A DNA stretch of 64,000 bases from Geosiphon pyriformis uo1 (Eukaryota; Fungi; Glomeromycota): contig JAAOMT010000420.1 in the NCBI GenBank assembly GCA_016748015.1, positions 226,602 to 290,601 on the forward strand, given 5' to 3'. This document shows positions 1,261 to 36,615 of the stretch, one piece after another (the first letter of the stretch is position 1; each line of letters starts with the position of its first letter). Below the pieces are notes generated by a model, which did not search any database, was not told the DNA's origin, and worked only from the letters and a program-made list of their open reading frames with translations. A program made the position numbers and the translations under genes.

Positions 1261-1382
1261 TATAAGAGATTTAAAAATAAAAGAAAATTATTTTTGGTGT
1301 ATGAGTTTTTATATTATTTTTGTTTTGTTTTTGTGAGATTGTTTCTAAATTATAAGGAGATAACTATAATAATAAATTTAAA

Positions 1383-2766: not shown

Positions 2767-2812
2767 TGTTTGTTGTTTTGTTATTAATTCAAATGGGTGT
2801 TGGTTTTGTATT

Positions 2813-8398: not shown

Positions 8399-8444
8399 TT
8401 TTGAAGTTGTTGTCACTGTGTTATTTCCGTGGAAAAGTACCAAA

Positions 8445-9420
8445 TATTACTGGAGGTTTTTGGTCTCTTTTTAGCTCTTGTATGTTTGTTGTAATGCTAT
8501 TAATTCACAACTATGGGAAGTGTTTGAACCTTCGATAACTGAATTTATCCTCAAATTATCTCCTATAATTTGAATTGCTGGATTTATAGTAGAATAGCCA
8601 ATTCCATGCCAGTTACTTTATGTAGTTATGTTGTAGTAAATGTCAACTCTTTCCCAGGAATTGCTTGTCTGGAAGCTCACTAAAATGTGTAGTTACTTTG
8701 CTGTAAAAGTCAACTCTTCTACAAAAATCTTGTCTGTAGGCTACCTTAATGATTGTAATAAGAAAATACAAGAAAATAAAAGAAATGTAAAAGAAATAGA
8801 ATTCTGTCAAAGGAAACATTTTCTATCCAGGCCTGGAGTTACTAACAGTTTACTGAAATTGGTAGCTAATTAATTTCAAAACATTAGTTGGGTTTTTGGA
8901 GATTTTCCAAGTGCAATATTTAAAGAAATTGGTTTTTTGAATTATTTGATATTTTATTTCTTTTTGTGTGTGTAGAAATGGTTCTAAGTGATAAATTTAA
9001 AGTAAGATACATTTTCTCAAAAAGAGAAGCTCTTTTTTTATACAACTTGTCATAACACTATTCTATAAACTTGAACTTTGCTATTTTCTACAATTTTGCT
9101 GAACTAAAGATACATTTTGACAAACTACAAGTTATTTCTGCAAACTATTAGATATTTCAGTAAACTATTAATTATTTCGGCGAATTTCTACAAATTTTGG
9201 CGAACTTTTTGAATGTTACATAGTTTGGGGTATTGTATGATTGATCATCACAATTAGGTTACATTTGTGTTATGTACAAATTGGGTTATTAGTTAAATAA
9301 TAATTTTGGACATTTTGCTAATGTAATAAGTGATAATTTGAAATGATAATATATGCTAATTAATAATAGGAATAAAGATAATGTCATGCTTAATAATATC
9401 TCTAATTTTGTCTGATAACA
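8445..9420 (-). repeat. 5' LTR of E1
   Basis: 976 bp, homologous to LTRs of E2 and E3; termini TGTTATCAGA...CCAGTAATA (decayed from TGTTACCAGA...TCTGGTAACA). Confidence 0.95.
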
Positions 9421-11734: not shown

Positions 11735-11866
11735 ACGCTGATATTCGCGCTGATTTGTTGGACACTTATGCAGCTGTCTGAGAGGTGCATTCTGGTCTGT
11801 CTTGCTCTTTTTTGTGTGTATCACAGTTGTTGTTAACTTGCATTTCAGATGTAACTGTCAGTATGA

Positions 11867-12848
11867 TGTTACCAGACAAAATTAGAGATATTGTTTAGCA
11901 TGAAATTACCCTTATAAATCTTATCATTAATTAGCATATATTATCGTTTCAAATTATCACTTATTATATTAGCAAAATGTCTGAAATTATCATTTAATTA
12001 ATAACCCAATTTGTACATAACACAAATATAACCTAAGTGCAATGATCAATCATACAATACTCTGAAATATGTAACATTCAAAAGTTCACCAAAATTTGTA
12101 GAAATTTGCTGAAATAATTGATAGTTTACTGAAATATCTAATAGTTTGTAGAAATAACTTGTAGTTTGCCAAAATGTATCTTTAGTTCAGCAAAATTGTA
12201 GAAAAGAGCAAAGTTCAAGTTCATAGAATAGTATTATGACAAGTTGTATAAAAGAAAAGCTTCTCTCTTCGAGAAAATGTATCTTACTTTAGATTTATTA
12301 CTTAGAACTATTCCTACACACACAAAAAAAAATAAATACCAAATAATTTAAAAAACCAAATTCTTTAATTATTGCACTTGGAAAATCCCCAAAATCCAAC
12401 TAACGTTTTGAAATTGATTAGCTACCAATTTCAGTAAACTGTTAGTGGCTCCAGGCCTGAATAGAAAACGTTTCTCTTAACAGAATTCTATTTCTTTTAC
12501 ATTTCTTTTATTTTCTTTCTTTTATTTTCTTATTCTAATCATTAAGGTAGCCTACAGATGAGATTCTTGTAGAAGAGTTAACTTTCACAGCAAAGTAACT
12601 ACACATTTTTAGTGAGCTTCCAGACAAGCAATTCCTGGGAAAAAGTTGACATTTACTACAACATAATTACACAAAGCAACTGGCACAAAACTGGCCATTC
12701 TACTTATAAGCCCAGCAGTTCAAATTATAGGAGATAATTTGAAGATAAATTCAGTTATCGGAGGTTCAAACACTTCCCATAGTCATAAATTAACAGCATT
12801 ACAATAAACATACAAGAGCTAAGAAGAGACCAAAAACCTCCAGTAACA
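11867..12848 (+). repeat. 5' LTR of E2
   Basis: TGTTACCAGA...CCAGTAACA; direct repeat of 20755-21736. Confidence 0.96.
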
Positions 12849-12893
12849 TTTGGTGTTCTCCCACGGAAATAACACAGCAACAACAAATTCAAA

Positions 12894-15800
12894 GTGGTGA
12901 TTACACCAGACACAACAACTCTAGAGTATTACCAGTCAATTTACATTCACTACAAGCAAAGATTCAACATTCTAGACAGAATTGAAGTTGTCAAAAAATC
13001 AGTATACCAATACATTAAAAACCACATCAACAATTATCTTTTTGAAAACTACAACATTTCAGAAGTTAGAAACAACCTCTACAATAATTTAGTGTACTAT
13101 TCGCAATTGGGAACAGAAAACCTGAACAGTGAAACACTTGCTACCTACTTTCAAGAACTTAATTTTAACATTATTGAATATTGTGAAGAAAAATATCCAG
13201 TACACTCTAAATACTCTTTTGACTTTGAATCAAAGACAAAAACAAGCAACAAAGGCAAACAAAGATTGAAGCAATACTCAAGAACCACTCCAAACACTCC
13301 AACACTACAAAAGACAACTGCCAAACACTTGCAAACACCTGAACAAGGAACCAGTTTAAAACTTCCACTTACTATCACACCTTTTCTAGCTTTACTTGCA
13401 CAAGCACAAACATCTAATTCACCCTTAAATTGATTTACAAAACCAGAAGATTTTACATTACTTAGAAGTCCTATCAGACAGCAAGAATCTCTTCAAACTA
13501 GTTCCAATCTTCTTGACTTTCTAGCTGAAAATCGAAGTAAATACTTTGAGACAGCAGTGAATGAAAAAAATGACTCTAAAATATCTGAAGAAGAATCAAT
13601 AGACAGTGAAAATGAAGAAGATAAAATGACAACATATATCACAAAAATCCCTGAATTTAATGGAGAAAACATTGAGACCAGTCCCCAAGAATGGCTCAAC
13701 CAAGTTACTAAAGCTGGAGATACAAATGGATAGAATGCTGCCAGAATGTTAAGAACAATTCCCTACTTTCTCAAAAAAACAACAGGCAAATGGTTCAAAA
13801 ACTTGACCACCCTTTTTAATGACTGGACAGCTTTCAAAACTGCCTTCTTAGAACAATTCACTGATAACAATACTTCAATCACACTTTGAAATTGTTTTTG
13901 CAATATCAAACAAGAACCCTCCAAATCTGTTATGACTTATATTGGAAAATTCAACAAACTCCTCAGATGAATTTGCCAACTTGAAACTAATGATTATTAT
14001 TCTGATGCTCAAATCTTGGATTAATTTATCGCTGGTTTAAAGGATAAACTGATTAAAAAGGTTTGCCCACATGCTCTAGAAGATTTAAACTCTGCCATTC
14101 AGCATGCAAAAAGATATGAAATGGCCATAGAAGAAGCCAATTGTACAAAACTTGTGAACTTAGCCATTGAAGAAACCAGCTCAGCAGCTGAGGAGAAAAT
14201 TGACCAACTCACAAAAAAAGTCAAAAACTATTTCACCAACCAACAACAACAGCAATCCCAAAGATATCAATCATCCCAAAGACGAAATCAAAACAACTTC
14301 ACATCATCCTCTAATAACCAGCCTCAGAATTGCCATTACTTTAGAATTCCTGGCTACTAGAAAAGAGATTGCAGAAAGCTACAACGAGATCAACAAAACA
14401 GAAGTAATCAATGTTATCCTTCGTCACAACAATCTTATTACCAACCACCACCACCACCAGCTTACTATCCACCAAGACCCCAATATCAAAATAACTATTA
14501 TCAGCCTGCTCCACAGCCAATTCAACAGCAATACCAACAACCACCCACACAACATTATCAAATACCTGCTCAAAGATTGATTACACAAAACCAATTCACA
14601 CCACAAAACTAATACCAAGTAAACAACAATAGAATTAGTTCGAACAACCAATTGGTTCCCTGAAATTCTATTTAACCAAGACCCAACCACTATCACACTC
14701 AATCCAGTTATTTAACAATGCCAGAAGAACAGAATTTTCACCATACTGCACTCTTAGAAGGTAGAGCTGCAGCACAACAACAAAATTCTTCTCATAACCA
14801 CACTACTATTCCACCAGCCAGAATTGCTGAAAACACCAATCTCTCTAATATCTTTCTTTTCGAGTTCGAAACCAATGAATTACCATTTTTATTCAGCAAT
14901 GCAGCCACCAATGAACAAAAAACAATCACTGCTATGTACACTGAAGCAGAAGTTGAAGAAAAGGCAATTCGTTTGATCCTAGACAATAGATCCACCAGAA
15001 GCATCATTACCTATCAGTTGATGCAACAGTTAAAGAGAAATGTTGACCGACCAGCTCAGACAGTAATCATCACTGCTAATGGCATGAAAAAGACTTCAGT
15101 AGGAGAAATTGACAATTTTCCATTTACTCTTGATGGAATTACTATTCCAGTCAAAGTTCTTGTAATGAACGCTCTTCAGTATCAAGCCCTTGTCAGAAAT
15201 GACTGGCTTCAAAAAGCCAATGCAAAATTAGACTGGGAAACCCAATAACTACAAATCTCTTACCAAGGACAACATGCCCGAGTATCTGCCACTTGTGGTA
15301 CATTCAACAAATACTCCAAAAAAGCCCTGGCTTTTGAATTTGAGCCAGAAGAAGAAAAACCAATAATCAAAACATTCATGGCTCTTGAGTCAACGTCCAA
15401 TTGGGCCGATGAAACTGAACAAGAACATTTTATCCCACACTCTGAACCCAAAACCCCTGAATGAAATATCCCCTACTCAAAGACTGAGCCAAGAAAACAA
15501 CGCCCCTATATTCCCCTTAAATGTAAAGACTGTCACAAGAAACTATCGTCAATGGGAGCTTGTATTTTACCTGAGGAAAAATATGAAAGTCACACCTGCT
15601 ACTATTGCAAGGCCTGCCATCGAGAATAATGAGGCCACTTGATCAAAAGAAGTGGAAAATAGGATGGAACACTCTGTTTTACTTGTGGAAAACAGCTTCT
15701 TGATGAATGTAACTGGATTGATGTTGCATTTAGAGGAGGAGTCTGTGATCAAACTTGTCAATATGCTCTTTCTATTGCAGAAAAAGTAAAATGTGGAACA

Positions 15801-18514
15801 TCTTTCAATGCTGCATACAACAGCGCTCTCAGCAAACTCTATTACTACTCCCATGACGCCGAAATGATCTATGAACTTGCCATGGTTTTAATTAATGGAG
15901 AAACCAAAGAAAATGTCCTTCAAATGAAGGAAACTGAATACATTGAATATATCTTGGAATTAGCTGGATTCAATTATGAAGATGAAGTAGAAGTGTACCA
16001 CCAAATCGCAAGTCACACCTACCTGACCCAAGAAGCTCAAATTCAATAATTAGAACAAATAAACATTAAATTATGTGAGGAATGTATAATGCCGTGTGAC
16101 AAACAATGATGTTCTGAATGCTATGCTCTTAGCATTCCATTACCCAGCAAAAGTAACAAATACAAAATTGAGTTTGGAGAACCTGAAGCAACAGAAAAAA
16201 TTGAAGTAACACCTATTTATCTCATCAAAAATCAGTCTGCCTTACAACTCAAATACTTCAACAACAACGGACAAGGAATAAAACCTGAAAAAACACATGA
16301 AATTGATGCTGAATATGACCTAAGATATCCAGACAAAGATACTCTTGTTCTCAAACCCAAATCTCTCACAAAAATCAACCTCAAAATTCTCTCGAAATCC
16401 TGTCAGGAGCAATGGTTCAAATTGCCTCCCAGTTCTCTCTGGCAAGCAAAGGAATCAATATCAGAGGAGGAATAATTAATGCTGAATATACTGGTGACAT
16501 AACAGTAATACTCCAAAATGAAACCGATAAACCTTTCAAAATTGAACATTCTGAAAAAATTGCCCAAGCTATCTATTTACCCTTAATTAATATTTCGGGC
16601 TTACAGTTAGTCAATCAAAGAGAACAATTGGAAAAAAGCAAAAGAGGAACACAAGATTTTGGTTCAACTGGACAATTCACAGTTCCAGTAAACATAGCTC
16701 TTAATGAACAAAGTGAATCTTACCAGATTCTACAACTTCCACAACCAATTACTATTTCATCTTTTGGAGAACACCCCAAAATTTACACTTGTGAAAAGCT
16801 AACAACCACCCAACAAATTTTTAAGTCCAATGAATAAATCTGCTTGAAACATAATATCTCAATTCCAAATATCTACATCCCAAAAAGAACAAAGAAAGTC
16901 CGAGTTACTTTTTACAACTCCAATAATTACCCCATAGTTTTATTAAATAACTTAGAAATTGGAGTTATTCACAGTAATATCTTTCAACAAAAATTACCCC
17001 AAACAATTCCTGATTTCTCTGAAATTATTGGACATTCACTACCAAAAATCAATCCAAACCTCAGCTCTAAAAACTACCATGTTGTCATGGAAAAACTATC
17101 TCAAATCAACATGGGACAACTTGAACCATAACAACAGAGCCAGCTCAAAGAGCTAATTGCAGAATTTGCCGATATCTTTGCCAAAAACAACAATGACATA
17201 GGAAGAACCGATTTGGTTCAACACCAAATCTATATAGGAGATGCCAAACCAAGGCAACAGCAAGCCTACCAAGTTGCTTCAGAAAGTCACCAATTTATCC
17301 ACAAAGAAGTGCAACGGATGCTCAACAATGGGCTTATTCAACCATCAATAAGTCTATGGGCTTCACCTGTGGTCTTAGTTAAAAAGAAAAATGGAAAAAT
17401 ACAATTTTGTGTTGATTATTGACAACTCAACAGTGTTACCATTGGAGATGCCTACTCTTTTCCCCAAATTGATGACATGCTAGATGCTTTTGGGAAGTCC
17501 AAATACTTTTCGACATTAGATTTAGAGAGTAGATACTAGCAAGTTGCCATGAATTCCAAAGATCGCTCTAAAACAGCATTCACCACTCAAAGAGAAAATT
17601 ATGAATTCAATATAATGCCTTTCGGATTATGCAATGCACCAGCAACATTTCAAAGACTTATGAACATTGTTTACAAAGGCCTCCTTTGAAAGTTAGTAGT
17701 TGTTTATCTTGACAATACTGATGTTTATTTTCCATCATTCGAATTACACTTAAAACACCTGCGAGAAGTTTTTCAATAATTATGAAAAGCAGAACTGAAA
17801 CTCAACATTGAAAAATACTACTTTGGAAAAACAAGCTTGGTCTTTCTTGGTCATATCATTAGTAAAGATGGAATCAAACCAGACCCTGGAAAAATCAGCA
17901 CTGTCAAAAACTTCAAAACTTCTCAAAACACTACAGAACTAAGAGGATTCATAGAGTTAGCCTTCTACTATCAGAAGTTTATCAAAAAATTCTTAGAAAT
18001 CGCAAAACCTCTCAACCAGCTTACCACCAAAAATGTTAAATACAAATAGACTGCTGAACACCAAAATGCATTTGAAATCCTCAAAGAAAAACTAATGACA
18101 GCTCCAATTCTTGCCTACCCAGATTTCAGCAACCAATTTTGGTTAGCAACAAATGCCTCTTATACTGTCTTTGGTGCTATCCTATCACAGTTAGATGACA
18201 ATAGAAATAAGCGAGTAATTGTTTATGCTAGCAGAACATTGAAACCAGCTGAAAAAAACTACTCTGCAATAGAATTAGAAACTGCAGCAGTAATCTGGGC
18301 CCTACATCACTTCAACCTTTACCTCAGACCCAAAAAATTTAATATTATCACTGATAATATTGGACTCAAATGGCTTCAGAACAAAAACACTCAGCTGAAT
18401 ACAAAACAAACCTGATAGACAGGATTTTTAGCCAACTACTGATATATTGTACACCACAAACCAGGAAAACTCCATACCAATATTAATTGTCTCTCAAGAA
18501 TGAGGCAAGATTAG
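12894..18514 (+). pseudogene. Gag-PR-Cys-rich-dUTPase-RT-RNaseH polyprotein of E2
   Basis: ORF pieces 12894, 14121, 14718 and 15864 share one frame, so Gag runs into PR without a frameshift; copy-specific 1-bp deletion near 16390; ends SRMRQD*. Confidence 0.93.
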
Positions 18515-18560
18515 AATACAAAACCAACACCCATTTAAATTAATAACAAAACAACAAACA

Positions 18561-19942
18561 ATGAACCCCGAAAACTACAACAATCTTAAACAATATTTGG
18601 AGACATTAACAATCCCAACAGATTGGTCCTCAGATAAAAAACATCAGTTACAACAACAAGCCAAATAATACTTCTTACACAATAACATAATTTATTATCG
18701 AAACTTCAGAAACCCAAACAATCCACTCAAATTAATACAAGAACATGAAAAAAAAACCATTTTATATAACATGCACTCAGACTTTTCATCAGCACACCTA
18801 GGAAAAGACAGCACCACCCAGAGAACACTAGAATATTACTTTTGGCCTCAAATGAGAAAAGACATTCATGAATACATTAAGTCTTATGATAGTTGTTAAA
18901 GAAGAGGAGGAACTCGCCCTACAGAACTTTTAAACCCAATCAAAGTTGAACAGTCTTTTGACCAAGTTGGTATCGATTTAGTCGGACCACTACCTATCAC
19001 AAACCAAGGAAACCATTATATTGCAGTAGCTGTAGACTATCTCACCAAATGGCCTGAAACCAGAGCCATTTAACAAGCAGATGCGAAATCAGTAGCAAAC
19101 TTCATCTATGAAGACATTATTTGTAGACATGGATGCCCAATAAAACTTTTATTTAATCAAGGAACACATTTCGTGAACAATTTAATCCAGGAAATTTGTG
19201 GACGATTTAATGTCAAGAGACCATTATCTTTGCCCTATCATCCACAAACAAATAGACTTGTAAAATGTTTCAACAGAACATTGTGTGAATCATTAGCCAA
19301 AGTCTCAACTGATTTTGAGCAAGAATGAGATCTCTTTATTCCATCAGTGTTACTAGCATATAGAACACTAAAACAAGATACCACAAAACACACACTATTT
19401 GATTTAATCTATGAAAGAACAGCAACGTTACCAATTAGTTTCACAATGGAAACATATCCAGTACAACCAATTAATAAAGACAACTTTTAGAAAACACTAC
19501 AATAAAGAGCCTATACTCTGCTTAGCACGTTGGAAAGAAAACAATAAATAGCAGTCATATTAAACACTCCCAAGCTCAACAAAAAGAATGGCATGACAAC
19601 AAATTGCCTTCAGTTACCAATGAATTTAAAATCAGAAACAAAGTTCTCTTACACAGAACTAAAGCTGAAAAACAATGGAATGGAAAATTTGAAAATAAAT
19701 AGGATAGACCATTCTTTATCCATGAAGTCCTAGGCAACAGGTCATACAAGCTAAGACTTGATAACAAAATCCTAGCAAAAGTTGCACATAGAGATCGTTT
19801 GAAACACTATAATTCCAGACACAATCCTGAACTATTAATTTCACAAATTAGTACACATTTCTCTTTAATCAATCCTGAAGATATTTCCTGAAATCTAGAA
19901 CCAATAGTTGTCATTGAACAATCTCTCAACTTGAACACTTAA
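18561..19942 (+). pseudogene. Integrase ORF of E2
   Basis: ATG at 18561 (MNPENYNNLKQYLETL), HSD..AHLG, GIDLVGP and YHPQTN motifs. Confidence 0.92.
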
Positions 19943-20064
19943 TTTAAATTTATTATTATAGTTATCTCCTTATAATTTAGAAACAATCTCACAAAAACAA
20001 AGCAAAAATAACATAAAAACCTATACACCAAAAATAATTTTCTTTTATTTTCAAATCTCTTATA

Positions 20065-20786
20065 ATGACTATTTCTTAAAACATTCAACAATTATCCCAA
20101 AAACTAATGTTAGCTTTAAAAACAATACCCAAATTATCTATTACTGTTACTGGAAACCACATTAATTATACCCAAACAGAAGTAGTTACAAATTTAGCCC
20201 CAAATTTACGAAAATATCACCCATATAAAAAGAACACAAGAAGTTATTCTGGAATTTACTTGCCAGAACTTTTAAAGCTTGCTTTAAGAGAAAACTTAAT
20301 ACTCACTCCTATTAGTATTTCACTAAATGCTACTATTCAACAAAAAACTTCAACTGTGTCTTAATGAAGAAAACTATGACTATACTCCAATATATAGATA
20401 TTTCTACATTAAAAAAACACTTCACAAACAAAAACAGAAGCTTATAGCAGCAAACCTCACAAAAAAAACTATTTGGAAACAACTCCACAACGAATTCAAG
20501 ACAACAGCTGGACCCTACAAACAGTCGTTATAAACTAAGAGCTGCTCTTAGACTTTATGACCTATTCCACATCTGTAAAAACGTACTACAAAACCCAATT
20601 TTTCAACCTTTGAAGATTCAATACATTGGAAAGCTCACAGAACTGAAATTTCAACAATTTTCAGACCAAATTTCTTTAATAATTTTGGATTATTATCTGG
20701 AAATAACAGACAGTACTTGGATTTCAATGGAGCTTAGTCTTGAGGAGAAAGTTATGTTACCAGATGAAATTAGAGATATTGTTTAG
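20065..20786 (+). pseudogene. Accessory ORF3 of E2
   Basis: Homologous to E3 ORF3, frameshifted; ends inside the 3' LTR. Confidence 0.85.
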
Positions 20787-21736
20787 CATAAAATTACCCT
20801 TATAAATCTTATCATTAATTAGCATATATTATTATTTCAAATTATTACTTATTACATTAGCAAAATGTCCGAAATTATCATTTAATTAATAACCCAATTT
20901 GTACATAACACAAATATAACCTAAGTGCAATGATCAATCATGCAATACCCCGAAATATGTAACATTCAAAAGTTTACCGAAATTTGTAGAAATTTGCCGA
21001 AATAATTAATAGTTCACTGAAATATCTAATAGTTCACAAAAATAACTTGTAGTTTGCTGAAATGTATCTTTAGTTCAGCAAAATTGTAGAAAAGAGCAAA
21101 GTTCAAGTTCATAGAATAATGTTACAATAAGTTGTATAAAAGAAGAGCTTCTCTTTTCAAGAAAATGTATCTTATTTTAGATTTATCACTTAGAACTATT
21201 CCTACACACACAAAAAGAAATAAATACCAAATAATTTGAAAAACCAAATTCTTTAATTATTGCACTTGGAAAATTCCCAAAACCCAACTAACATTTTGAA
21301 ATTGATTAGTTACCAATTTCAGTAAACTGTTAGTGACTCCAGGCCTGGATAGAAAACATTTCCCTTGACAGAATTCTATTTCTTTTACATTTCTTTTATT
21401 TTCTTTCTTTTATTTTCTTATTCTAATCATTAAAGTAGCCTACAGACAAGATTCTTGTAGAAGAGTTGACTTTCACAGCAAAGTAACTACACATTTTTAG
21501 TAAGCTTCCAGATGAGCAATTCTTGGGAAAGAGTTGACGTTTACTACAACATAACTACACAAAGCAACTGGTATGAAACTGGCTATTTCACTTATAAGCC
21601 CAGCAGTTCAAATTATAGGAGATAATTTGAAGATAAATTCAGTTATCGGAGGTTTAAACACTTCCCATAGTTGTGAATTAACAGCATTACAATAAACATA
21701 CAAGAGCTAAGAAGAGACCAAAAACTTCTGGTAACA
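20755..21736 (+). repeat. 3' LTR of E2
   Basis: TGTTACCAGA...TCTGGTAACA. Confidence 0.96.
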
Positions 21737-23210
21737 ACGGCCCTGTGTAAAGGCTTTGTTTTTGGCGATTGGTATCACGAGTCTGTTTCTGTTTACAAAG
21801 ATTCTAAGGTGGCAGTGGTTAATGTTGTGAATTTTGTATGTGAGTTTTGTTTTGCATTTTGTGATAATATCTGGCTGGTCCGTGTAAAACACTGGGCTAT
21901 TATGAAGAAGAATAAGCTAATTCCACGTGATGGTTCCATTTCTGTCACTGTTTCTGGTTTTTCTACATGGCTTTCAGCTGGAGTGATTAGGTTGTTGGGT
22001 ATTGCTGATGCACTTGGCATCAGTTTTGGATATTGTAAGCATTATTTGTTTTATGCAGGTGTTGGTGACATAGCTTCTGTTTATATAAGTGCATAGTATT
22101 GTTCTGACTAGTCTGAGTGTTTGGTTATGTGTAGCAAAGACATGATTTGCACCTAATTTAGATCATTTGTATAATGTATAGCACTAGGTGGTGTTTGGAC
22201 TTCACTCATAAAACTTTAAAAAAAAATAAAAAAAAAATGTCTTACTTAAAAAATTATAGAACAATCTAGCTTTTAACTTAAAACTCTTCTTAATTAAGAG
22301 ATCTTATTAATGACAAACCTTAAAAGAAATAAAATTAAACTGTAAATAATAGTTAAAAATAGATTGCAAAATAGCTGAAACTAAATATAAAAACTATTTA
22401 TTCATGATAATTTTTTTTAAAATCATATTTGAAAAAAACTTGATGTCAAATCAAGTCTTGGCTAAACTAGACTTAGACATTTCATCAGTAAATAAAAAGA
22501 TTTTTAAATATATGTGCAGTATACCATTTTTGGCAATTAAAATAAGTAATTCACTAATGTTTAAAAAAACATTTTTAATTTTTTGGTTAATAAAAATAGC
22601 CACTGTTTTGTTATTGTTAATTAAAATATTATTAATCAAAAAAATTTACTGACAATATCTAATATATATTGTGTAAAAATCTAACTATTCTTAATTTAGA
22701 TAATATTATCAATAAAGACATCAGCTATAAAAAAAAAAGTCACTTTTTTTTTGGTTTTTACTTTTTCTGTTTTAGCCATAAATTTGGTATTAATTTGGTA
22801 TTTATATAAATGTTGTTGTCTTTTAATCTTATATAAAAAAAAGTCATAGAAGATTCTCCAAAGAAAAGAAGAGAATATCTTATAATAATCTAGTCTATTA
22901 TGTATTTAATATTTATTTATAAGACTAAAATCTATCATAATTCTATTTAATCTATTTTTATAAATACTGCTAAAAAAGCCAATAAATTTTTTACACATTG
23001 TTACCAGACAAATTTAGAGATATTATTTAGCATGAAATTATCTTATAATTTCTATCATTAATTAGCATATATTATCATTTCAAATGATCACTTATTACAT
23101 TAGCAAAAATGTCTGAAATTATCATTTAATTAATAACCCAAATTGTACACAACACAAATATAACCTAATTGCGATGATCAATCATGCAATACCCCGAACT
23201 ATGTAACATT

Positions 23211-23335
23211 CAAAAAGTTTGCCGAAATTTGTAGAAATTTGCCGAAATAATTGATAGTTCACTGAAATATCTAATAGTTCGCCGAAATAACTTATAGTTT
23301 GCCGAAATGTATCTTTAGTTTAGTGAAATTTTAGA
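23211..23335 (+). repeat. 20-bp-period array of palindromic TTCGCCGAAAT-type motifs in LTR U3 (~6 units; present in all family A LTRs)
   Basis: agttt gccgaaattt gtagaaattt gccgaaataa ttgatagttc actgaaatat ctaatagttc gccgaaataa cttatagttt gccgaaatgt. Confidence 0.85.
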
Positions 23336-23379
23336 AAATAGCAAAGTTCAAGTTCATAGAATAGTGTTATGACAAGTTG

Positions 23380-23386
23380 TATAAAA
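23380..23386 (+). promoter_or_regulatory. Putative LTR TATA box (TATAAAA); candidate poly(A) signal AATAAA at 23463-23468
   Basis: Conserved in most LTR copies (one transition in the E1 5' LTR), ~45 bp downstream of the U3 array. Confidence 0.55.
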
Positions 23387-23676
23387 GAAAAGCTTCTCTC
23401 TTTGAGAAAATGTATCTACTTTAGATTTATCTCTTAAAACCGTTCATATATACACAAAAAGAAATAAATATCAAATAATTCGAAAAACCAAATTCTTTAA
23501 TTATTGTACTTGGAAAATTCCCAAAACCCAACTAACATTTCGAAATTGATTAGCTACCAATTTCAGTAAACTGTTAGTGACTCCAGGCCTGGATAGAAAA
23601 TGTTCCCTTGATAAGATCCTATTTCTTTTACACTTCTGTTATTTTTCTTTCTTTTCTTATTACAATCATTAGGGTA

Positions 23677-23800
23677 GCCTACAGACGAGATTCCTGTAGA
23701 AGAGTTGACTTTCACAGCAAAGTAACTACACATTTTTAGTGAGCTTCCAGACGAGCAATTTCTGGAAAAGAGTTGACGTTTACTACAATGTAACTACATA
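23677..23800 (+). other. Tandemly duplicated two-hairpin RNA motif in LTR U5/leader
   Basis: Unit 1: CTACAG-acgagattc-CTGTAG aag AGTT-g-ACTTT-cacagc-AAAGT-AACT. Unit 2 consensus: TTCCAG-acgagcaattc-CTGG(G/A)A aag AGTT-g-ACGTT-tactac-AACGT-AACT. Compensatory stem changes between units. Confidence 0.7.
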
Positions 23801-23976
23801 AAGTAACTAGCAAGAAATTGGCCATTCTACTCATAAGCCCAGCAAATTCAAATTATAGGAGATAATTTGAAGATAAATTCAGTTACTGGAGGTTCAACCA
23901 CATCCAGAAAACGTGAATTCACAGCAAATAAGTATCAACAACATTACAGAAAAGAGACCAAAAACCTCCGGTAACA

Positions 23977-23994
23977 TTTGGTGCTCTCCCACGG
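23977..23994 (+). promoter_or_regulatory. Primer binding site (TT-TGGTGCTCTCCCACGG)
   Basis: TGG two nt after the LTR end, complementary to a tRNA ending ...GAGAGCACCA; tRNA identity not determined. Confidence 0.8.
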
Positions 23995-24021
23995 AAACAA
24001 CACAGCAAAAACAAATTCAAA

Positions 24022-27000
24022 GTGGCAACCACACCAGACGCAACAACTCTAGAGTATTACCAATCAATTTACACCCACTGCAAGCAAAGATTCAACATTC
24101 CAGACGGAATTGAAATTGTCAAGAAATCAGTATACCAATGCATTGAAAACCGCATCAACAATTATTTTTTTGGAAATTACAATATCTCAGAAGTTAGAAG
24201 CAACCTTTACAATAATTTAGCACACTATTCACAGTTGGGAACTGAAGACCTTAATAGTGAAACACTTGCCACTTACTTTCACGAAATTAATTATAACATT
24301 ATTAAATACTGTGAAGAAACATATCCAGTGCAGTCTCAATACACTATTGATTTTGAATCGGAAACAGAAACAAGCAACAAAGGCAAAAACAAATTAAAGC
24401 AATATTCAAGAACCACCCCAAATACTCCAACACTACCGAAAACAACTGCTAAACATTTACAAACACCTGAACAAGAAACCAGTTCAAAACTTCTACTTAC
24501 TATCACACCTTTTCCAGCCTCACTTGTATAAGCACAAACACCTAATTCACCCTTGAATCGATTTGCAAGACCAGAAGATTTTACATCACTCAGAAGTCTC
24601 ACCAGACAACAAGAACCCCCTCAAACTAGTTCTAATCTCCTTGATTTTCTAGCTGAAAATCAAAGTGAACACTCTGAGACAGCAGCAAACGAAGAAAACA
24701 ACTCTGAAATAACCGAAGAAGAATCAATAGACAGTGAAAACGAAGAAAACAAAATGACAACATACATCACAAAAATCCCTGAATTCAATGGAGAAGATAT
24801 TGAGACCAGTCCCCAAGAATGGCTTGACCAAGTTACTAAAGCTGGAGATGTAAATGGATGGAATGCTGCCAGAATGTTAAGAACAATTCTCTACTTTCTC
24901 AAAGGCATAGCAGAAGAATGGTTTGAAAACCTTGCCGCCCCATTCAATGATTGGAATGCTTTTAAAGCAGCCTTCCTTGAACAGTTCACCGACAATAATA
25001 CCTTTATTGCTCTTCACAATTGTTTTCGAAATATCAAACAAGAACCCTCCAAATCCATTATGACTTATATTGGAAAATTCAACAAACTTCTCAGACGGAT
25101 TTGCCAACTCGAGACAAATGATTATTATTCTGATGCTTAAATCTTGGATCAATTTATTGCTGGTCTGAAAGATAAACTAATTAAAAAGGTTCGCCCACAC
25201 ACGCCAGAAGATTTAAACTCTGCCATCCAGTATGCGAAAAGATACGAAATGGCCATGGAAGAGGCCAATTGTACAAAACTTGTAAATTTGGCAATTGGAG
25301 AAACCAGCTCAGCAGCTGAGGAAAAAATTGACCAACTCACAAAGAAGGTCGAAAACTATTTTACCAACCAACAACAACAACAACAATCCCAAAGATATCA
25401 ACCACTCCAAAAACGAAATCAAAATAATTTTGCACCACTTTCAAATAACCAGCCCCAGAATTACCATTACTGTGAAATCTCTGGCCACTGGAAAAGAGAT
25501 TGCAGAAAGCTACAGCGAGACCAACAAAACAGGGATAATCAACGTTACTCTCCACTACAGCAATCTTATTATCAACCATTACCACCAGCTTACTATCCAC
25601 CAAGACCCCAATACCAAAATAACTATTATCAGCCCGCCCCACAACCAATCCAACAGCAATACCAACAACCACCCACACAACATTATCAAGTACCTGCTCG
25701 AAGACTGATTACACAAAATCAATTCACACCACAAAACCGATACCAAGTAAACAACAATAGAATCAGTTCAAACAACCAATTAGTTCCCCAAAATACCACT
25801 CAACCAAGATCCAACCCTTATCACACTCAACCCAGTTATTTAACAATGCCAGAAGAACAGAATTTTCACCATACTGCACCCTTAGAAGGTAGAGCTGCAG
25901 CCCAACAACAATGAAACCCTTCTCATAACCACACCATTATTCCACCAGCCCAAATTGTTGAAAATGCCAATCTCTCTGATATCTTTCTTTTTGAATTTGA
26001 AGCAAATGAATCACCATTCTTACTTAGCAATACAGTGCTAATGAGCAAAAAGCCATCACTGCAATGTATGCAGAAGCTGAAGTAGAAGGAAAGCCAATTT
26101 GTTTGATCCTAAACAGTGGATCCGCCGGAAGCATTATTACCTACCAGTTAATGTAACAGTTGAAAAGAAATATCAACCGACCAGCTCAAACAGTAATTAT
26201 CACTGCCGATGGTATGAAAAAGACTCCAGTAGGAGAAATTGACAATTTTCCATTCACTCTTGATGGAATCACTATTCCAGTCAAAGTTCTTGTAATGGAT
26301 GCACTCCAGTACCAAGCCCTCATCAGAAATGATTGGCTTCAAAAAGCCAATGCTAATCTGAACTGGGAGACACAAGAGTTAACAATCTCTTACCAAGGAC
26401 AACACGCCTGGGTACTTGCCATTTGTGGTACATTCAACAAACGCTCTGAAAAAGCCCTGGCTTTTGAATTTGAACCAGAAGAAAAAAAACCAATAATTGA
26501 AACATTCATGGCTCTTGGATCAACGTTCAATTGGGCCGATGAAACAAAACAAGAACATTTTACACCACACACTAAACCCGAAACCTCTGGATGGAATATA
26601 TCTTACTCAAAACCTGAACCAAGAAAACAACGCCCCTATATTCCCCTTAAATGTAAGGACTGCCACAAGAAACTATCATCAATAGGAGCCTGCATTTCAC
26701 CTGAAGAAGAATATGAGAATCATACTTGTTATTACTGCAAGGCTTGTCACAGAGAGCAATGGGGCCATCTAATAAAAAGGAGCGGAAAATGGGACAACAC
26801 CTCTTGTTTGACTTGTGGAGATATGCTACCAGAAGAATGCAATTAGATTGATGTAGCAATGAGAGGAGGTGTCTGTGATCAAACCTGCCAATATGCTTTA
26901 TCAATTTCAGAAAAAGTAAAAAGAGGAACACCCTTTAATGCAGCATACAACAGTGCTCTCAACAAACTTTATCACTACTTTCATGATGCCGAGATGATTT

Positions 27001-29645
27001 TCGACTTAGCAATGGCTTTAATTAATGGAGCTACCAAAGAAGATGTTCGTCAAATAAAGGAAGTAGAATACATTAAATACACTATGGAATTAGCTGGATT
27101 TGATTACAAAGATGAAGTAGAAGTCTATCACCAAATTGCAAGTCACACCTACCCAACTCAAGAAGCTCAAATTCAACGATTAGAGCAAATGAACATTAGG
27201 CTATGTGAAGAATGCATTATGCCTTGTAATGAACAATGGTGTCCCAAATGCTATGCTCTTAGTATTCCCTTGCCCAGCGAAAATGATGAGAATGAAATTG
27301 AATTTGGAGAACCTGAAGAAATGGAAGAAATTGAAACAACACCCATCTACCTTATCAAAAATCAGCCTGCCTTACAACTTAAATACTTCAACAACAACAA
27401 ACAAGGAATAAAATCTGAAAAAGCACATGAAATTGATGTTGGATATGACTTAAGATATCCAGGCAAGAATACTCTTGTTCTCAAACCCAAATCTCTCACA
27501 AAAATCAACCTCAAAATTGCACTTGAAATCCCGCCAGAAGCAATGGTTCAAATCACCTCTCGGTCCTCTCTGGCAAGCAAAAGAATCAATGTCAGAGGAG
27601 GAATAATCGATGCTGGATATACTGGAGACATAACAGTGATGCTTCAAAATGAGACTGACAAACCATTCAAGATCGAACATGCTGAAAAAATTGCCCAAGC
27701 TATTTACCTACCCTTAATCAACATTTCGGGTTTGCAACTAGTCAATCAAAGAGAACATTTAGGAAAAAGTGATAGAGGAACTCAAGGTTTTGGTTCAACT
27801 GAATGATTCACAGTTCCAGTTAATATAGCTCTTAACACACAGAACAAATCCTACCAGATTCTCAGACTTCCACAACCGATTACCATCTCACTTTTTGGAG
27901 AACATCCAGAAATTTACACTTGTACAAAGCCAACAACCACACAACAAATTTTTGAGTCCAATGAACAAGTCTGCTTGGAACATAATATTTTGATCCCAAA
28001 CATTTATATTCCAGAAGGAACAAAGAAAGTCCGAGTTACTTTTTACAACCCCAATAATTACCCCATAATTTTATTAAATAATTTAGAAATTGGAGTTATT
28101 CACAGTAATATATTTCAACAAAAATTACCCCAAACAGTCCCCGATTTCCCTGAAATTATTGGACATTCACTACTGAAAATCAACCCAAACTCTAGCTCTG
28201 AAAACTACCATGTTGTTATGGAAAAACTATCTCAAATCAACATGGGACAACTTGAACTACAACAATAGACGCAGCTCAAAGAACTAATTGCAGAATTTGC
28301 TGATATCTTCGCCGAAAACAACAATGACTTAGGAAGAACTGATTTGGTTCAACACCAAATCTATACAGGAGATGCCAAACCCAGGTAACAACAAGCCTAC
28401 CAAGTTGCTCCAGAAAGTCACCAATTTATCCGAGAAGAAGTACAACGGATGCTTAACAATGGGCTTATTCAACCATCAATAAGCCCATGGGCCTCACCTG
28501 TGGTTCTAGTTAAAAAGAAAAATGGAAAGATACGATTTTGTGTTGATTACCGACAACTTAACAGTATCACCATTGGGGATGCCTACCCTCTTCCCCGAAT
28601 TGATAACATGTTGGATGCCCTTGGAAAGTCCAAATACTTTTCAACATTAGATTTAGAAAGTAGATACTGGCAAGTTGCTATGGATCCCAAAGACCGCTCC
28701 AAAACAGCATTCATCACTCAAGAAAGAAATTACGAGTTCAATGTAATGCCTTTTGGATTATGCAATGCACCAGCAACATTCCAAAGACTCATGGATGTTG
28801 TTTACAAAGGCCTCCTTTGGAAATCAGTAGTAGTTTATCTTGATGACACTGATGTTTATTCATCATCTTTTGAGCTACATTTAATTCACCTGCGAGAAGT
28901 TTTTCAATGATTACGGAAAGCAGGATTGAAATTGAACATTGAAAAATGCTACTTCGGAAAGACAAGTTTAGCTTTTCTTGGTCACATTGTTAGCAAAGAT
29001 GGAATTAAACCAGACCCCGGAAAAATCAGTACTGTCAAAAACTTCAAGACTCCATGAAATACCACAGAATTAAGAGGATTTATTGGATTAGCATTCTATT
29101 ACCGAAAATTCATCAAAGGATTCTCAGAAATTGCAAAACCTCTCAACCAGCTCACTATGAAAAATGTCGAATACAAATAGACAAAAGAACACCAAAATGC
29201 CTTCGAGATACTCAAGGAAAAACTCACAACAGTCCCAATCCTCGCCTACTCAGACTTCAGCAACCAATTCCGGTTAGCAACTGATGCTTCTTATACTGCC
29301 TTTGGTGTTATTCTATCACAGTTAGATAACAATGGAAATGAGCAAGTAATTGCTTATGCTAGTAGAACATTAAAACCAGCCGAAAAGAACTATTCTGCAA
29401 CAGAATTAGAAACTGCAGCAGTAATCTGGGCCCTACATCACTTCAACCTTTACCTCAGACCCAAAGAATTCGATATTATCACTGATAATATTGGACTTAA
29501 ATGGCTTCAAAACAAAAACATCCAGCTGAACGCAAAACAAACCCGATGGACAAGATTTTTAGCTAATTATCAATACATCGTACACCACAAACTAGGAAAA
29601 CTCCACACCAACGTTGATTGTCTCTCAAGGATGAGGCAAGATTAG
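24022..29645 (+). pseudogene. Gag-PR-Cys-rich-dUTPase-RT-RNaseH polyprotein of E3
   Basis: N-extension 24022-24753; capsid from MTTYITKIPEF; knuckle (C)HYCEISGHWKRDC; PR ILNSGSAG ~26100; Cys-rich ~26650-27270; dUTPase ~27370-27803; RT PWASPVVLV, MPFGLCNAPATFQ, YLDD; RNase H TDAS, YSATELE; few stops and frameshifts. Confidence 0.95.
27370..27803 (+). other. dUTPase domain within E3 polyprotein (also E2 ~16245-16675, E1 ~4655-5085)
   Basis: All five trimeric dUTPase motifs: D(A/V)GYDL, RSSLA, GIIDAGYTG, KIAQAI, RGTQGFGST(G). Confidence 0.95.
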
Positions 29646-29693
29646 AAACAAAACCAACACTCATTTGAATTAACAGCATCAAAACAACAAACA

Positions 29694-31079
29694 ATGAACC
29701 CTGAAAACTACAACAATCTCAAACAATATTTGGAGACATTAACAATCCCAACAGATTGGTTTTTAGACAAAAAACATTGATTACAATAACAAGCCAAACA
29801 ATATTTTCTACACAACAACATTATCTATCATCGAAATTTCAAAAACCCAACCAAATCACTCAGATTAATACAAGAACAGAAAAAAGAGACCATTTTATAC
29901 AACATGCACTCGGATCCTTTATCAGCACACTTCGGAAAAGATAGCACCACCCAAAGAACACTAGAATATTACTTTTGGCCTTGAATGAAAAAAAACATTC
30001 ATGAATATGTCGAATCTTGTGATAGTTGTCAAAGAAGAGGAAGAACTTGCCCTACAGAATCTTTAAATCCACTCAAAGTTGGACAGCCTTTTGACAGAGT
30101 TGGTATCGATTTAGTTGGACCACTATCTATCACCACTCAAGGAAACCATTATATTGCAGTAGCTGTAGACTATCTTACTAAATGGCCTGAAGCCAGAGCC
30201 ATTCAACGAGCAGATGCAAAATCAGTAGCAAATTTTATCTACGAAGACATCATTTGTAGACATGGATGTCCAATTGAACTTTTATCCGATCAGAGAACAC
30301 ACTTTGTGAACAACCTGATACAAGAAATTTGTGAACGATTCAATGTCAAAAAACCTCTGTCTTTGCCCTACCATCCACAAACAAACGGACTTGTGGAATG
30401 TTTTAACAGAACATTGTGTGAGTCATTAGCCAAAGTCTCAACTGATTTTGAGCAAGAATGGGATCTCTTTATTCTATCAGTGTTACTAGCATATAGGACA
30501 TTAAAACAAGATACCATAAAAAACACACCATTTGATTTAACTTATGGAAGGACGGCAACGTTACCAATTAGTTTTACAGTGGAAACATACCCAGTACAAC
30601 TGATCAATGAAAACAATTTCTAAGAAACACTTCAGTGAAGAGCCTACACTCTGCTTAGTACATTGGAAGGAAAACGACAAATAACAGCCACCCATATTGA
30701 ACACTCCCAAGCTCAACAAAAAGAACAGCATGATGACAAATTGCCTTCAGTCACCAATAAATTCAAAATTGGAAACAAAGTTCTCTTACACAGAACTAAA
30801 GCTGAAAAACAATGGAGTGGAAAATTTGAAAATAAATGAGATAAACCATTCTTTATCCATGAAGTCCTAGACAATGGATCATACAAGCTAAGACTTGATG
30901 ACAAAATCCTAGCAAAAGTTGCACATGGAGATCATTTGAAACACTATCATTCCAGAAACAATCCTGAACCATTAATTCCACAAATTGGTATACATTCTCC
31001 TTTGGTCAGTCCCGAAGATATTCCCTGAAACTTAGAACCAATAGTTGTTATTGAACAACCTTCCAACCTGAACACTTAA
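29694..31079 (+). pseudogene. Integrase ORF of E3 (separate from pol)
   Basis: HSDPLSAH...CDSCQ zinc finger, GIDLVGP, SDQ(G)THF, YHPQTNGLVE, GPF-like C-terminal module; no chromodomain seen. Confidence 0.94.
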
Positions 31080-31190
31080 TTTAATTTTACTAGTCATTCT
31101 CTTATAATTTAGAAACAATCTCACAAAAACAAAAACAACATAAAAACCCATACACCAAAAATAATTTTTATTTTTTTTCAATTGCTTATA

Positions 31191-31910
31191 ATGACTATTC
31201 CTCAAAACATTCAACAATTATCCCAAAAACTAATGTTAGCTTTAAAAACAATACCCAAATTATCTATTACTGTTACTGGAAACCACATTAATTATATCCA
31301 AACAGAAGTAGTTACAAATTTAGCCCCAAACTCACGAAAATAACACTCATATAAAAAGAACACAAGAAGTTATACTGGAATTCACCTGCCAGAACTTTTA
31401 AAGCTTGCTTTAAGAGAAAACCTAATGCTCACTCCAATTAGTATTCCACCAAATGCTACAATTCAACAAAAACTTCAACTGTGTCTTAATGAGAAAAACA
31501 CTGAATATCCTCCAATCTATAGATATTTTCACATTGGAAAAACACTCTACAAACAGAAACTGGAACTTACAACAGCAAACCTCACAAAAGAAGCTATTCA
31601 GAAACAACTCCACAATGAATTCAAGACAACAGCTGGATCAACAAACAGTCGCTACAGGCTTAGAGCCGCCCTTAAACTTTATGACCTATTCCACACCTGT
31701 GAAAACGTACTACAAAACCCAATTTTTCAACCTTTGAAGATTCAATACATTGGAAAGCTCACAGAACTGAAATTTCAACAATTTTCAGACCAAATTTCTT
31801 CAATAATTTTGGATTATTATCTGGAAATAACAGACAGTACTTGGACTTTGACGGAGCTCAGTCTTGAGGAGGAGGTTATGTTACCAGACGAATTTAGAGA
31901 TATTATTTAG
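31191..31910 (+). pseudogene. Accessory ORF3 of E3, 239 aa, unknown function
   Basis: ATG at 31191, one premature TAA (TAT in E1 and E2), frame runs across the PPT and ends 32 nt into the 3' LTR. Confidence 0.88.
31866..31875 (+). promoter_or_regulatory. Polypurine tract of E3
   Basis: GAGGAGGAGG, 3 nt before the 3' LTR. Confidence 0.8.
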
Positions 31911-32856
31911 CATGAAATTATCTTATAATTCCTATCATTAATTAGCATATATTATCATTTCAAATGATCACTTATTACATTAGCAAAAATGTCCGAAATT
32001 ATCATTTAATTAATAACCCAAATTGTACACAACACAAATGTAATCTAATTGTGATGATCAATCATGCAATACCCCAAACTATGTAACATTCAAAAAGTTT
32101 GCCAAAATTTGTAGAAATTTGCCAAAATAATTGATAGTTCACCAAAATATCTAATAGTTCGCTGAAATAACTTATAGTTTGCTGAAATGTATCTTTAGTT
32201 CAGCGAAATTTTAGAAAATAGCAAAGTTCAAGTTTATAGAATAGTGTTACGACAAGTTGTATAAAAGAAAAGCTTTTCTCTTCAAGAAAATGTATTTACT
32301 TTAGATTTATTTCTTAAAACCATTTATATACACACAAAAAGAAATAAATATCAAATAATTCGAAAAACCAAATTCTTTAATTATTGTACTTGGAAAATCC
32401 CCAAAACCCAATTAACATTTCGAAATTGATTAGCTACCAATTTCAGTAAACTGTTAGTGACTCCAAGCCTGGATAGAAAACGTTCCCTTGATAAGATCCT
32501 ATTTCTTTTACACTTCTGTTATTTTTCTTTCTTTTCTTATTACAATCATTAGGGTAGCCTACAGACGAGATTCCTGTAGAAGAGTTGACTTTCACAGCAA
32601 AATAACTACACATTTATAGTAAGCTTCCAGACAAGCAATTCCTGGGAAAGAGTTGACGTTTACTACAACATAACTACATAAAGTAACTGGCAAGGAATTG
32701 GCCATTCCACTCATAAGCCCAGCAAATTCAAATTATAGGAGATAATTTGAAGATAAATTCAGTTACTGGAGGTTCAACCACATCCAGAAAACGTGAATTC
32801 ACAGCAAATAAGTATCAACAACATTACAGAAAAGAAACCAAAAACCTCTGGTAACA
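31879..32856 (+). repeat. 3' LTR of E3
   Basis: TGTTACCAGA...TCTGGTAACA followed by TSD ACAT. Confidence 0.97.
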
Positions 32857-35518: not shown

Positions 35519-36615
35519 GGTCAATGATCAGGTCAATAATTAGGTCAATGATCAGGTCAATGGTCAGGTCATTGATCAGATCAATGATCAGGTTAACGGT
35601 GTTACCAGACGAAATTAGAGATATCATTTAGCATAAAACTATCTTATAATTCCTATCATTAATTAGCATATATTATCGTTTCAAATTATCACTTATTATA
35701 TTAGCAAAGAATGTTCGAAATTATCATTTAATTAATAACTCAAATTGTACACAACACAAATGTAACCTAATTGCAATGATCAATTATGCAATACCCCGAA
35801 CTATGTAACATTCAAAAGTTTGCCGAAATTTATAGAAATTTGCCAAAATAATTGATAGTTCACCGAAATATCTAATAGTTCACAGAAATAACTTGTAGTT
35901 TGCTGAAATGTATCTTTAGTTCAGCGAAATTGTAGAAAATAGCAAAGTTCAAGTTCATAGAATAGTGTTATGACAAGTTGTATAAAAGAAGAGCTTCTCT
36001 CTTCGAGAAAATGTATCTTACTTTAGATTTATCTCTTAAAACCGTTCCTATACACACAAAAAGAAATAAATATCAAATAATTCAAAAAACCAAATTCTTT
36101 AATTATTGTACTTGGAAAAACCCCCAAAAACCCAACTAACATTTCGAAATTGATTAGCTACCAATTTCAGTAAACTGTTAGTGACTCCAGGTCTGGATAG
36201 AAAAACGTTCTCTTGATAAAAATCTTATTTCTTTTATATTTCTTTTATTTTCTTTTCTTTTCTTATTACAATCATTAGGGTAGCCTACAGACGAGATTTT
36301 TGTAGAAGAGTTGACTTTCACAGCAAAGTAACTACACATTTTTAGTGAGCTTCCAAACGAGCAATTCCTGGAAAAGAGTTAATATTTACTACAACGTAAC
36401 TACATAAAGCAACTGGCACAGAATTGGCCATTCTACTCATAAGCCCAGCAAGTTCAAATTATAGGAGATAATTTGAAGTTAAAAATTCAGTTACTGGAGG
36501 TTCAACCACATCCAGAAAACGTGAATTCACAGCAAATAAATATCAACAACATTACAGAAAAGAAACCAAAAACTTCTGGTAACAACGGTCAGGTTATTGA
36601 TCAGATTAATGATCA
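35519..36615. repeat. 12-bp tandem array (GGTCAATGATCA) split by the solo LTR
   Basis: About 7 units at 35519-35599, continuing at 36585-36615. Confidence 0.85.
35600..36584 (+). mobile_element. Solo LTR, family A
   Basis: 985 bp, TGTTACCAGA...TCTGGTAACA, perfect TSD ACGG, no PBS or PPT. Confidence 0.97.

Follow-up and report, generated by a model that had tools for sequence, protein, structure and literature searches.

A three-ORF Ty3/Gypsy element with a separate integrase in Geosiphon pyriformis

The E3 element and its separate integrase

The stretch of DNA analysed here, 64,000 nucleotides (nt) of Geosiphon pyriformis contig JAAOMT010000420.1 (hereafter the window), holds at 22999-32856 on the + strand a full-length, mutation-killed Ty3/Gypsy long terminal repeat (LTR) element that we call E3. 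Its Gag-Pol ends after RNase H, and the integrase and a third product, ORF3, are encoded by separate downstream open reading frames (ORFs). Two further copies, E1 and E2, lie in the same window, and all three are dead. The coding features of E3 and the positions of its sister copies are as follows.

24022..24753, + strand: N-terminal Gag extension, 244 codons in frame from a putative GUG start
24754..26034, + strand: Gag from the first shared AUG, with capsid, CCHC knuckle and Q/P-rich spacer
26037..26450, + strand: aspartic protease, in frame with Gag in E1 and E2
26550..27359, + strand: Cys-rich insert, with third-position bias
27360..27803, + strand: trimeric-type dUTPase (Pfam E 2e-20)
28260..29645, + strand: reverse transcriptase (RT) and RNase H, ending at the stop 29643-29645
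29646..29693, + strand: spacer between Pol stop and integrase AUG, 48 nt, A/C-rich, AUG-free, unstructured (z -0.35)
29694..31079, + strand: free-standing integrase ORF, with YPYY-like N-terminus, H2C2, DDE core and GPY/F module
31191..31910, + strand: ORF3, 239 amino acids (aa), helical, crossing the polypurine tract (PPT) and running 10 codons into the 3' LTR
11867..21736, + strand: E2, second copy, 86% identity to E3
1..9420, - strand: E1, third copy, 83% identity to E3, cut by the window start

With stops read as X, Pfam finds the domains of E3 in the order Retrotrans_gag/Ty3_capsid, aspartic protease, dUTPase, RVT_1, RT_RNaseH, Integrase_H2C2, rve and a weak SH3/GPY match. The frames carry 3 stops in Gag, 9 in Pol, 8 in the integrase and 2 in ORF3, where the counts for Pol, integrase and ORF3 include the natural terminator and that for Gag does not; one stop in ORF3 is private to E3, as is a 1-nt deletion at about 26037, Gag and Pol being in frame in E1 and E2. 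The stop at 29643 after RNase H is common to E1, E2 and E3, and the integrase AUG at 29694 lies in a frame different from that of Pol in E1 and E2. However, four further stops (29178, 30636, 30837 and 31026) are also common to all three copies, probably through parallel decay, and three copies alone thus cannot prove the split; the true integrase end may lie at 31028. Contigs of DNA run X1 give deep coverage of the entire element, with no substitution listed at the Pol stop, but as they break there they carry little weight.

It is the relatives, not the three decayed copies, that show the split to be real. As relatives we took the best 80 of 355 matches from an integrase search of metagenome contigs (L numbers below denote loci). 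They are LTR elements, recognizable by PPT-TGTTA starts and junctions between LTR and primer-binding site (PBS), and in all 52 that cover both domains RNase H and integrase lie in separate ORFs. The integrase start methionine aligns in all 25 integrases aligned. Of 2,181 proteins retrieved with a profile, the best 120 are all 390-449 aa long, share the same N-terminal pattern in 109 cases and include three named Rhizophagus proteins (R. irregularis, R. clarus); this search was limited to 216-767 aa and is therefore uninformative on fused forms. The DNA loci were collected without a length limit, but via the split integrase. Viral contigs yielded no integrase relative. In a quick tree of the window and the metagenome loci only, E3 sits on a long branch and its position is unsure.

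We regard the three-ORF layout with a separate integrase as almost certainly a lineage-wide variant of Ty3/Gypsy. A preliminary description of this DNA had proposed three separate ORFs in just this domain order, and the Pfam order, the shared stop and the split relatives bear it out; it had also proposed a fungal Ty3/Gypsy lineage with its own expression strategy, which holds as well, the closest named proteins being those of Geosiphon pyriformis. A collapse into an ordinary gag-pol element was checked and does not occur, given 52 split relatives out of 52. A full-text literature search, with Repbase and Wang et al. 2021 outside its reach, found no description of a Gypsy lineage in which the integrase has its own ORF, and the passage on known integrase positions in a review does not include the separate-ORF state (PMC2774666). 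The lineage-wide novelty is the free integrase.

Expression of Gag and integrase

How the integrase may be made can be approached from the junction itself. Among 51 callable loci, the integrase AUG overlaps the Pol stop in 16, follows it within 1-100 nt in 23 and lies further away in 12. The stop-to-AUG gaps range from -145 to +1026 nt and the three junction frames occur 10, 22 and 19 times; since the integrase is found in all three frames with such varied spacing, one fixed frameshift or readthrough at the junction is excluded on sequence grounds. In 22 short-spacer loci (L038 was dropped as a duplicate of L031), AUGs are as frequent as expected within Pol from -300 to -50 (58 observed against 56.7 expected, 56 against 53.5 and 42 against 32.1), fall to 6 against 12.8 in the last 50 nt of Pol and to 4 against 21.5 in the spacer. 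Position -3 of the integrase AUG is A in 19/23, and the overlapping junctions are of the types TAATG, ATGA and ATGnnTAA, which match known termination-reinitiation (PMC3542737). Because AUGs are normal in Pol and depleted from the stop onward, we favour stop-restart, that is termination-reinitiation, as the likeliest route to the integrase, at somewhat better than an even chance. This route predicts the 48-nt AUG-free, unstructured spacer of E3, the AUG depletion and the A at -3.

Upstream of Gag, the 779 nt from the PBS to the capsid AUG contain no AUG common to E1, E2 and E3 in any frame; the single copies have 3, 3 and 1 leader AUGs where 9-10 are expected, and at most of these sites the other copies read ACG or ACA. 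Beginning at a GUG in good context, the leader frame remains open, and its transitions have a third-position bias; we infer that this GUG is used as the start of the Gag extension. Of the relatives, 12 loci were inspected, of which 7 were tested further, 2 have many leader AUGs and 3 are incomplete. In 6 of the 7 tested, the first AUG has T at -3 and the next 483-552 nt contain no AUG, where 4.5-8.5 would be expected; the AUG that ends this stretch is in frame with a purine at -3, again in 6 of 7. The Gag extensions of six relatives are mutually homologous (15/15 pairs); a conserved N-terminal extension of 160-185 aa with His and CxxC is seen in L001:3226-3727, L026, L027, L033, L034 and L072, and, judging from these leaders, it is made only from the weak upstream AUG. 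A weak first start, a long AUG-free stretch and an in-frame AUG in better context point to leaky scanning at Gag, a signature that is described for rice tungro bacilliform virus (RTBV) as well (PMC5902531).

We thus propose a model in which most scanning ribosomes would miss the weak first start, which is GUG in the window and an AUG in poor context in relatives. They would then traverse 480-730 bases without any AUG before initiating at the capsid AUG, so that Gag-Pol would exist in a long and a short form. A fraction of the ribosomes that terminate after RNase H would then restart at the overlapping or nearby AUG and make integrase from the same RNA as Gag-Pol. The free integrase would have to reach the cDNA without carriage by Gag, possibly by binding the RNA or the LTR ends.

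Several observations weigh against this model or the sample behind it. The search began from the split integrase, which places more distant fused relatives outside the sample, and several loci are near-duplicates, so that independent counts are lower. The AUG test took only spacers of ≤100 nt, chosen by length; the 12 loci with spacers above 100 nt hold 1-33 AUGs there, although some of them look like broken Pol tails. In one clade, spacers of 365-506 nt hold 7-10 AUGs, and simple rescanning cannot cross these. As a rule, ribosomes reinitiate after a long ORF only with the help of an RNA element or a protein (PMC5902531, PMC3542737); no such helper was found in the window, where no search aimed at a TURBS-like motif was made. 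The spacers between integrase and ORF3 are not depleted of AUGs (8 against 9.4 expected in 14 loci), hence ORF3 may be expressed by another route than the integrase; only 3 of these junctions overlap, as ATGA. At the leader, L035 is out of frame (one of the seven relatives tested), L008 and L039 of a clade lacking ORF3 carry many AUGs, and the window's Gag extension has no detectable homology to the extensions of the six relatives.

The same AUG signature at the junction would also be expected if the integrase, perhaps with ORF3, had its own subgenomic mRNA, spliced or from an internal promoter, as foamy-virus pol or the ORF3s of LTR retrotransposons do, since a 5' end near the Pol stop would yield AUG depletion there too. 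Such an mRNA would account for the long AUG-containing spacers of 12/51 loci and for the undepleted integrase-ORF3 spacers, and the messages for ORF3s in LTR elements are as a rule spliced (PMC5408684). Yet depletion begins at the stop even though Pol ends anywhere from 0 to 360 aa after RNase H, 16 of 51 junctions overlap the stop, an arrangement for which a separate mRNA has no need, and 7 of the 22 short spacers lack a YAG acceptor. We consider this explanation possible, if doubtful. That the split merely reflects decay or recoding, with a stop mutated in or bypassed by readthrough or frameshift into a Pol-integrase fusion, is hardly credible. The copies are indeed heavily mutated and share the four other stops, and readthrough exists in the lineage: the ORF3-less clade has an in-frame TGA followed by CTA, the classic readthrough context, between Gag-protease and RT in 10/10 loci listed (L002, L007, L008, L009, L010, L012 at 5332-5337, L015, L016, L017 and L056). 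However, the 52 split relatives, most with long open frames, and the spread of junctions over all three frames and the whole range of gaps, with a conserved start methionine, refute it for the lineage.

Internal initiation, in which a structured RNA recruits ribosomes or initiator tRNA to the integrase AUG independently of Pol termination, has its basis in a sister clade. There, a 40-nt stem-bulge-stem-loop stands just before the integrase AUG (for example L027:5184-5239 and about 20 other loci), with 19 strong and 2 weak matches in the 80 loci. In its alignment 94% of cells are paired, two-sided changes occur at 8/10 pairs and 0/500 shuffles score as high, the structure having been derived from the same sequences that were later scored, which favours the slide control. 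The integrase junction is thus, as judged from such covariation, under RNA-level control in at least one clade. Nevertheless, the element is absent from the window, where the spacer is unstructured, and from 59/80 loci, and it might just as well assist reinitiation or signal packaging; we think internal initiation improbable, and stop-restart remains our preferred reading.

The RNA element belongs to no Rfam family. It presents two UGNRA pentamers (a UGNAA bulge and a UGNGA loop end) around a 6-bp stem, which recall the UGxRA consensus of the T-box double T-loop (PMC7583486, PMC4810234). Its model matched 0/16 T-boxes, and in prokaryote genomes the exact pattern occurred 37 times against about 35 by a chance estimate, which gives no direct T-box support. 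The best bacterial match (L118:1179-1232, - strand, 27 bits) preserves the two loops without the stem, seemingly within coding sequence, and is probably due to chance, as the same pattern match had selected that genome.

Pol additions, ORF3 and the LTRs

Within Gag-Pol, the zinc knuckle of E3 Gag gives a weak Pfam match (E 0.04), and the Cys-rich insert and the dUTPase separate protease and RT by about 600 aa, compared with 64-222 aa in 14 relatives covering the region. The third-position bias of the Cys-rich insert, which the dUTPase shares, indicates that the insert is under purifying selection. Both modules are present in diverged Geosiphon subfamilies. Since neither they nor the window's N-terminal Gag extension were matched in any of the 80 relatives, all three appear as local additions, the insert and the dUTPase being add-ons of Geosiphon-type families as far as these loci tell. 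In retroviruses, dUTPase serves to limit uracil incorporation into cDNA, and the dUTPase of the element would likewise limit uracil entry. The Cys-rich insert has no match in Pfam or the ESM Atlas, and its model is poor (predicted local distance difference test, pLDDT, 52, from three sequences) and without a Foldseek match. In the clade with the RNA element, Pol ends with a conserved Cys/His domain after RNase H (33 invariant columns, no Pfam match; L027:4762-5163, also L022, L028, L032, L033, L036, L064, L072 and L078). An identity of the Cys-rich insert with this Pol tail was rejected, homology being put at only 2.8%.

Among 209 ORF3 homologues, the best 120 all come from Geosiphon pyriformis, with 67-95% identity; the commonest intact lengths in this set are 239 aa (23) and 221 aa (25). 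Among metagenome proteins there are two distant matches, of 33% and 28%. The relatives carry a family of 130-180-aa ORFs downstream of the integrase, 13 of which, when aligned, match the Geosiphon ORF3 family in HHalign (90.7%, E 1.3e-6). As hmmsearch with a Geosiphon-only ORF3 profile hit 0/214 ORFs in the loci, it is solely this profile-profile match that links ORF3 to the relatives. In 12 loci, all in one 30-row clade, the integrase directly adjoins the PPT with no ORF3; this clade is still split, hence ORF3 is not required for a separate integrase. In L057:2786-3205 and L048:1623-2021, integrase and ORF3 are separated by an additional ORF of about 120 aa.

The predicted structure of ORF3 is mostly helical (pLDDT 78). 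The fold searches that the preliminary description had suggested for the modules assigned neither ORF3 nor the Cys-rich insert to a known fold: for ORF3, Foldseek found nothing in its PDB or viral sets and a VIA-wide search reached a best Z of 5.1. Its sequence has no Pfam match, a PDB sequence search gave weak Mdm2 rows only, and the ESM Atlas result lay below its recognition level. A hint of DUF1016_N (E 0.058) was dropped when HHalign gave only about 1%. No env-like match was found, ORF3 having no Pfam, PDB or viral fold match and no other candidate ORF being present. We take ORF3 to be a conserved accessory protein by its sequence relatives and, tentatively, most likely a nucleic-acid-binding regulator of the element; that it binds the U3 array is a guess. 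Its proposed nef-like character comes down to position.

The non-coding features of E3 and a solo LTR in the window are the following.

22999..23976, + strand: 5' LTR, 978 bp, TGTTAC...GTAACA
23213..23330, + strand: U3 array, 10-bp motif TTYRCCGAAA with a 20-bp period, 5-6 units per LTR
23380 and 23463: TATA-like box and AATAAA, respectively, inside the 5' LTR of E3
23670..23805, + strand: duplicated 66-nt unit, putative U5/leader
23977..23994, + strand: PBS, TGG after a 2-nt gap
31864..31878, + strand: PPT
31879..32856, + strand: 3' LTR, with the target-site duplication (TSD) ACAT directly after
35600..36584, + strand: solo LTR, TSD ACGG/ACGG

The two 978-bp LTRs of E3, both with TGTTAC...GTAACA ends, are 95.7% identical and flanked by a 4-bp TSD, ACAT/ACAT. 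They differ at 42 positions; as 41 of these differences are transitions, 20 of them at CpG, the pattern would fit methylation-driven decay. The U3 motif array that had been described stands, with 58 matches in the window (LTR copies counted repeatedly) against 20.5 +/- 4.3 in shuffles; U3 arrays of other sequence are seen by eye in the LTRs of relatives, one of them without ORF3. The U5 RNA motifs fare less evenly: the duplicated 66-nt unit is there and its hairpin shows compensating changes between the two units, but folding is not significant (z -0.5 and -1.1) and Rfam has no match. By eye, the U5 regions of L026, L049 and L072 (e.g. L049:4370-4453) share common blocks with the look of conserved structure before a common PBS. 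A search of the 64-kb window for tRNA genes found none, and no cognate tRNA was found for the PBS. Elsewhere in the window, 9421-11866 between E1 and E2 contains, besides two short ORFs, a GGTAACA at 11728 that resembles an LTR end, and possibly holds another element; the non-repeat part carries an F-box-like ORF (E 1e-8) at 52922-54007 (- strand) and a 409-aa ORF without a Pfam match at 54248-55477 (+ strand).

Significance and comparison with known systems

On the general view, LTR retroelements have their integrase delivered as part of the Gag-Pol polyprotein. A lineage with a free integrase therefore raises the questions of how the enzyme is made after an ORF of 1,200-1,900 codons and how it finds the cDNA, and its junctions provide naturally occurring material on which reinitiation downstream of a long ORF can be tested in fungi. 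Mycorrhizal fungi carry the lineage in abundance. LTRs make up 41% of the Geosiphon genome (PMC11952901), a figure not specific to the E3 family. Rhizophagus integrases of the lineage are annotated as stand-alone 'DDE integrase/transposase' genes, intact ones being present in R. irregularis, and hence could have been entered among DNA transposons or host genes by mistake. The lineage also offers a concrete route for the question of whether Ginger1 arose from Gypsy elements. The boldest combined reading would be a polycistronic, caulimovirus-style Gypsy with a free Ginger1-like integrase of the same target preference, a living intermediate between LTR retrotransposons and Ginger1 DNA transposons, in one clade of which translation restarts by means of a T-box-like double T-loop that grips a tRNA elbow beside the integrase AUG, and in which ORF3 is a regulator of new fold; taken jointly, we hold it unlikely.

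In its general build E3 resembles Ty3/Gypsy elements, with TG...CA-ended LTRs, TSD, PBS, PPT, Gag and the order protease, RT, RNase H, integrase. Ty3 is the best PDB match both for RT-RNase H (327 bits) and for the integrase (168 bits), by similarity and not by a tree, and the element is on this ground Ty3/Gypsy and not a retrovirus. For RT-RNase H, cauliflower mosaic virus (CaMV) follows with 220 bits, foamy virus with 136, murine leukaemia virus with about 100 and human immunodeficiency virus with about 40; with these scores and no env-like match, the 'complex-retrovirus-like' label of the preliminary description is not supported. In contrast to canonical Ty3/Gypsy, the integrase here is a separate ORF with its own AUG and not part of a Pol polyprotein. 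Integrase within Pol is the usual Ty3/Gypsy layout rather than a taxonomic criterion. E3 further differs from Ty3 in its AUG-free leader with a weak upstream start, in the ORF3 over the PPT and in lacking a chromodomain, which Pfam did not detect in the window (cut-off E 0.1) or in four intact relatives (E 0.01).

A dUTPase between protease and RT is known in fungal and rotifer Gypsy elements (PMC2864245, PMC6431247, PMC5408684), and E3 resembles Tmt1 of Tuber, PosPlaTy3 of Postia, Phanerochaete elements and the rotifer elements Juno, Vesta and TelKA in this respect. Extra ORF3s are common as well, and rotifer Gypsy families carry one (PMC5408684). The dUTPase and ORF3 thought distinctive of the element are thus present in E3 but of kinds already described in Gypsy elements; together with the retrovirus-like reading, the dUTPase and the position of ORF3 add little novelty. 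The dUTPase-bearing elements described have their integrase inside pol and ORF3s of env, esterase or exonuclease types, to none of which the ORF3 of E3 has a match.

The integrase, of about 420 aa with YPYY-like start, H2C2, DDE and GPY (by eye), together with TGTNR ends and a 4-bp TSD, recalls Ginger1 and the YPYY-motif Gypsy elements. A YPYY-like start with a GPY module is found in Ginger1 transposases and in Athila/Tat-related Gypsy integrases (Bao 2010, PMC2836005), the Gypsy examples being Athila/Tat, Gypsy-1-I_RO of Rhizopus and DGLT-A (PMC2836005). This likeness is one of motifs and not of a tree with reference elements. Ginger1 TSDs are CCGG or CCGT/ACGG (PMC2836005); the five flanks available here (ACGG/ACGG, ATGA/ACGG, ACAT/ACAT, ACAA and, in L008, CCGT) would fit the target ACGG/CCGT only if CpG decay is allowed. 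Unlike Ginger1 DNA transposons, which are bounded by TIRs and lack RT, the element has LTRs and RT, and no OTU or Ulp1 domain.

In its presumed mode of working the element comes close to Caulimoviridae such as CaMV and RTBV. There too, long ORFs follow one another with the stop codon of one fused to, or close to, the start codon of the next, and a long stretch without AUGs comes after a first start that is not itself an AUG (PMC5902531); in E3 the latter is a sequence signature only. It differs from them in having LTRs and an integrase and an RT closer to Ty3, and ORF3 has no match to the CaMV transactivator. The closest working analogue would nonetheless be caulimovirus polycistronic translation, and not the complex retroviruses. 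The UAAUG, AUGA and AUGnnUAA junctions of the lineage recur in victoriviruses, hypoviruses, caliciviruses and non-LTR retrotransposons (PMC3542737, PMC5902531). In contrast to those reinitiators, many junctions here have spacers of 25-100 nt, and they follow an upstream ORF of 1,200-1,900 codons.

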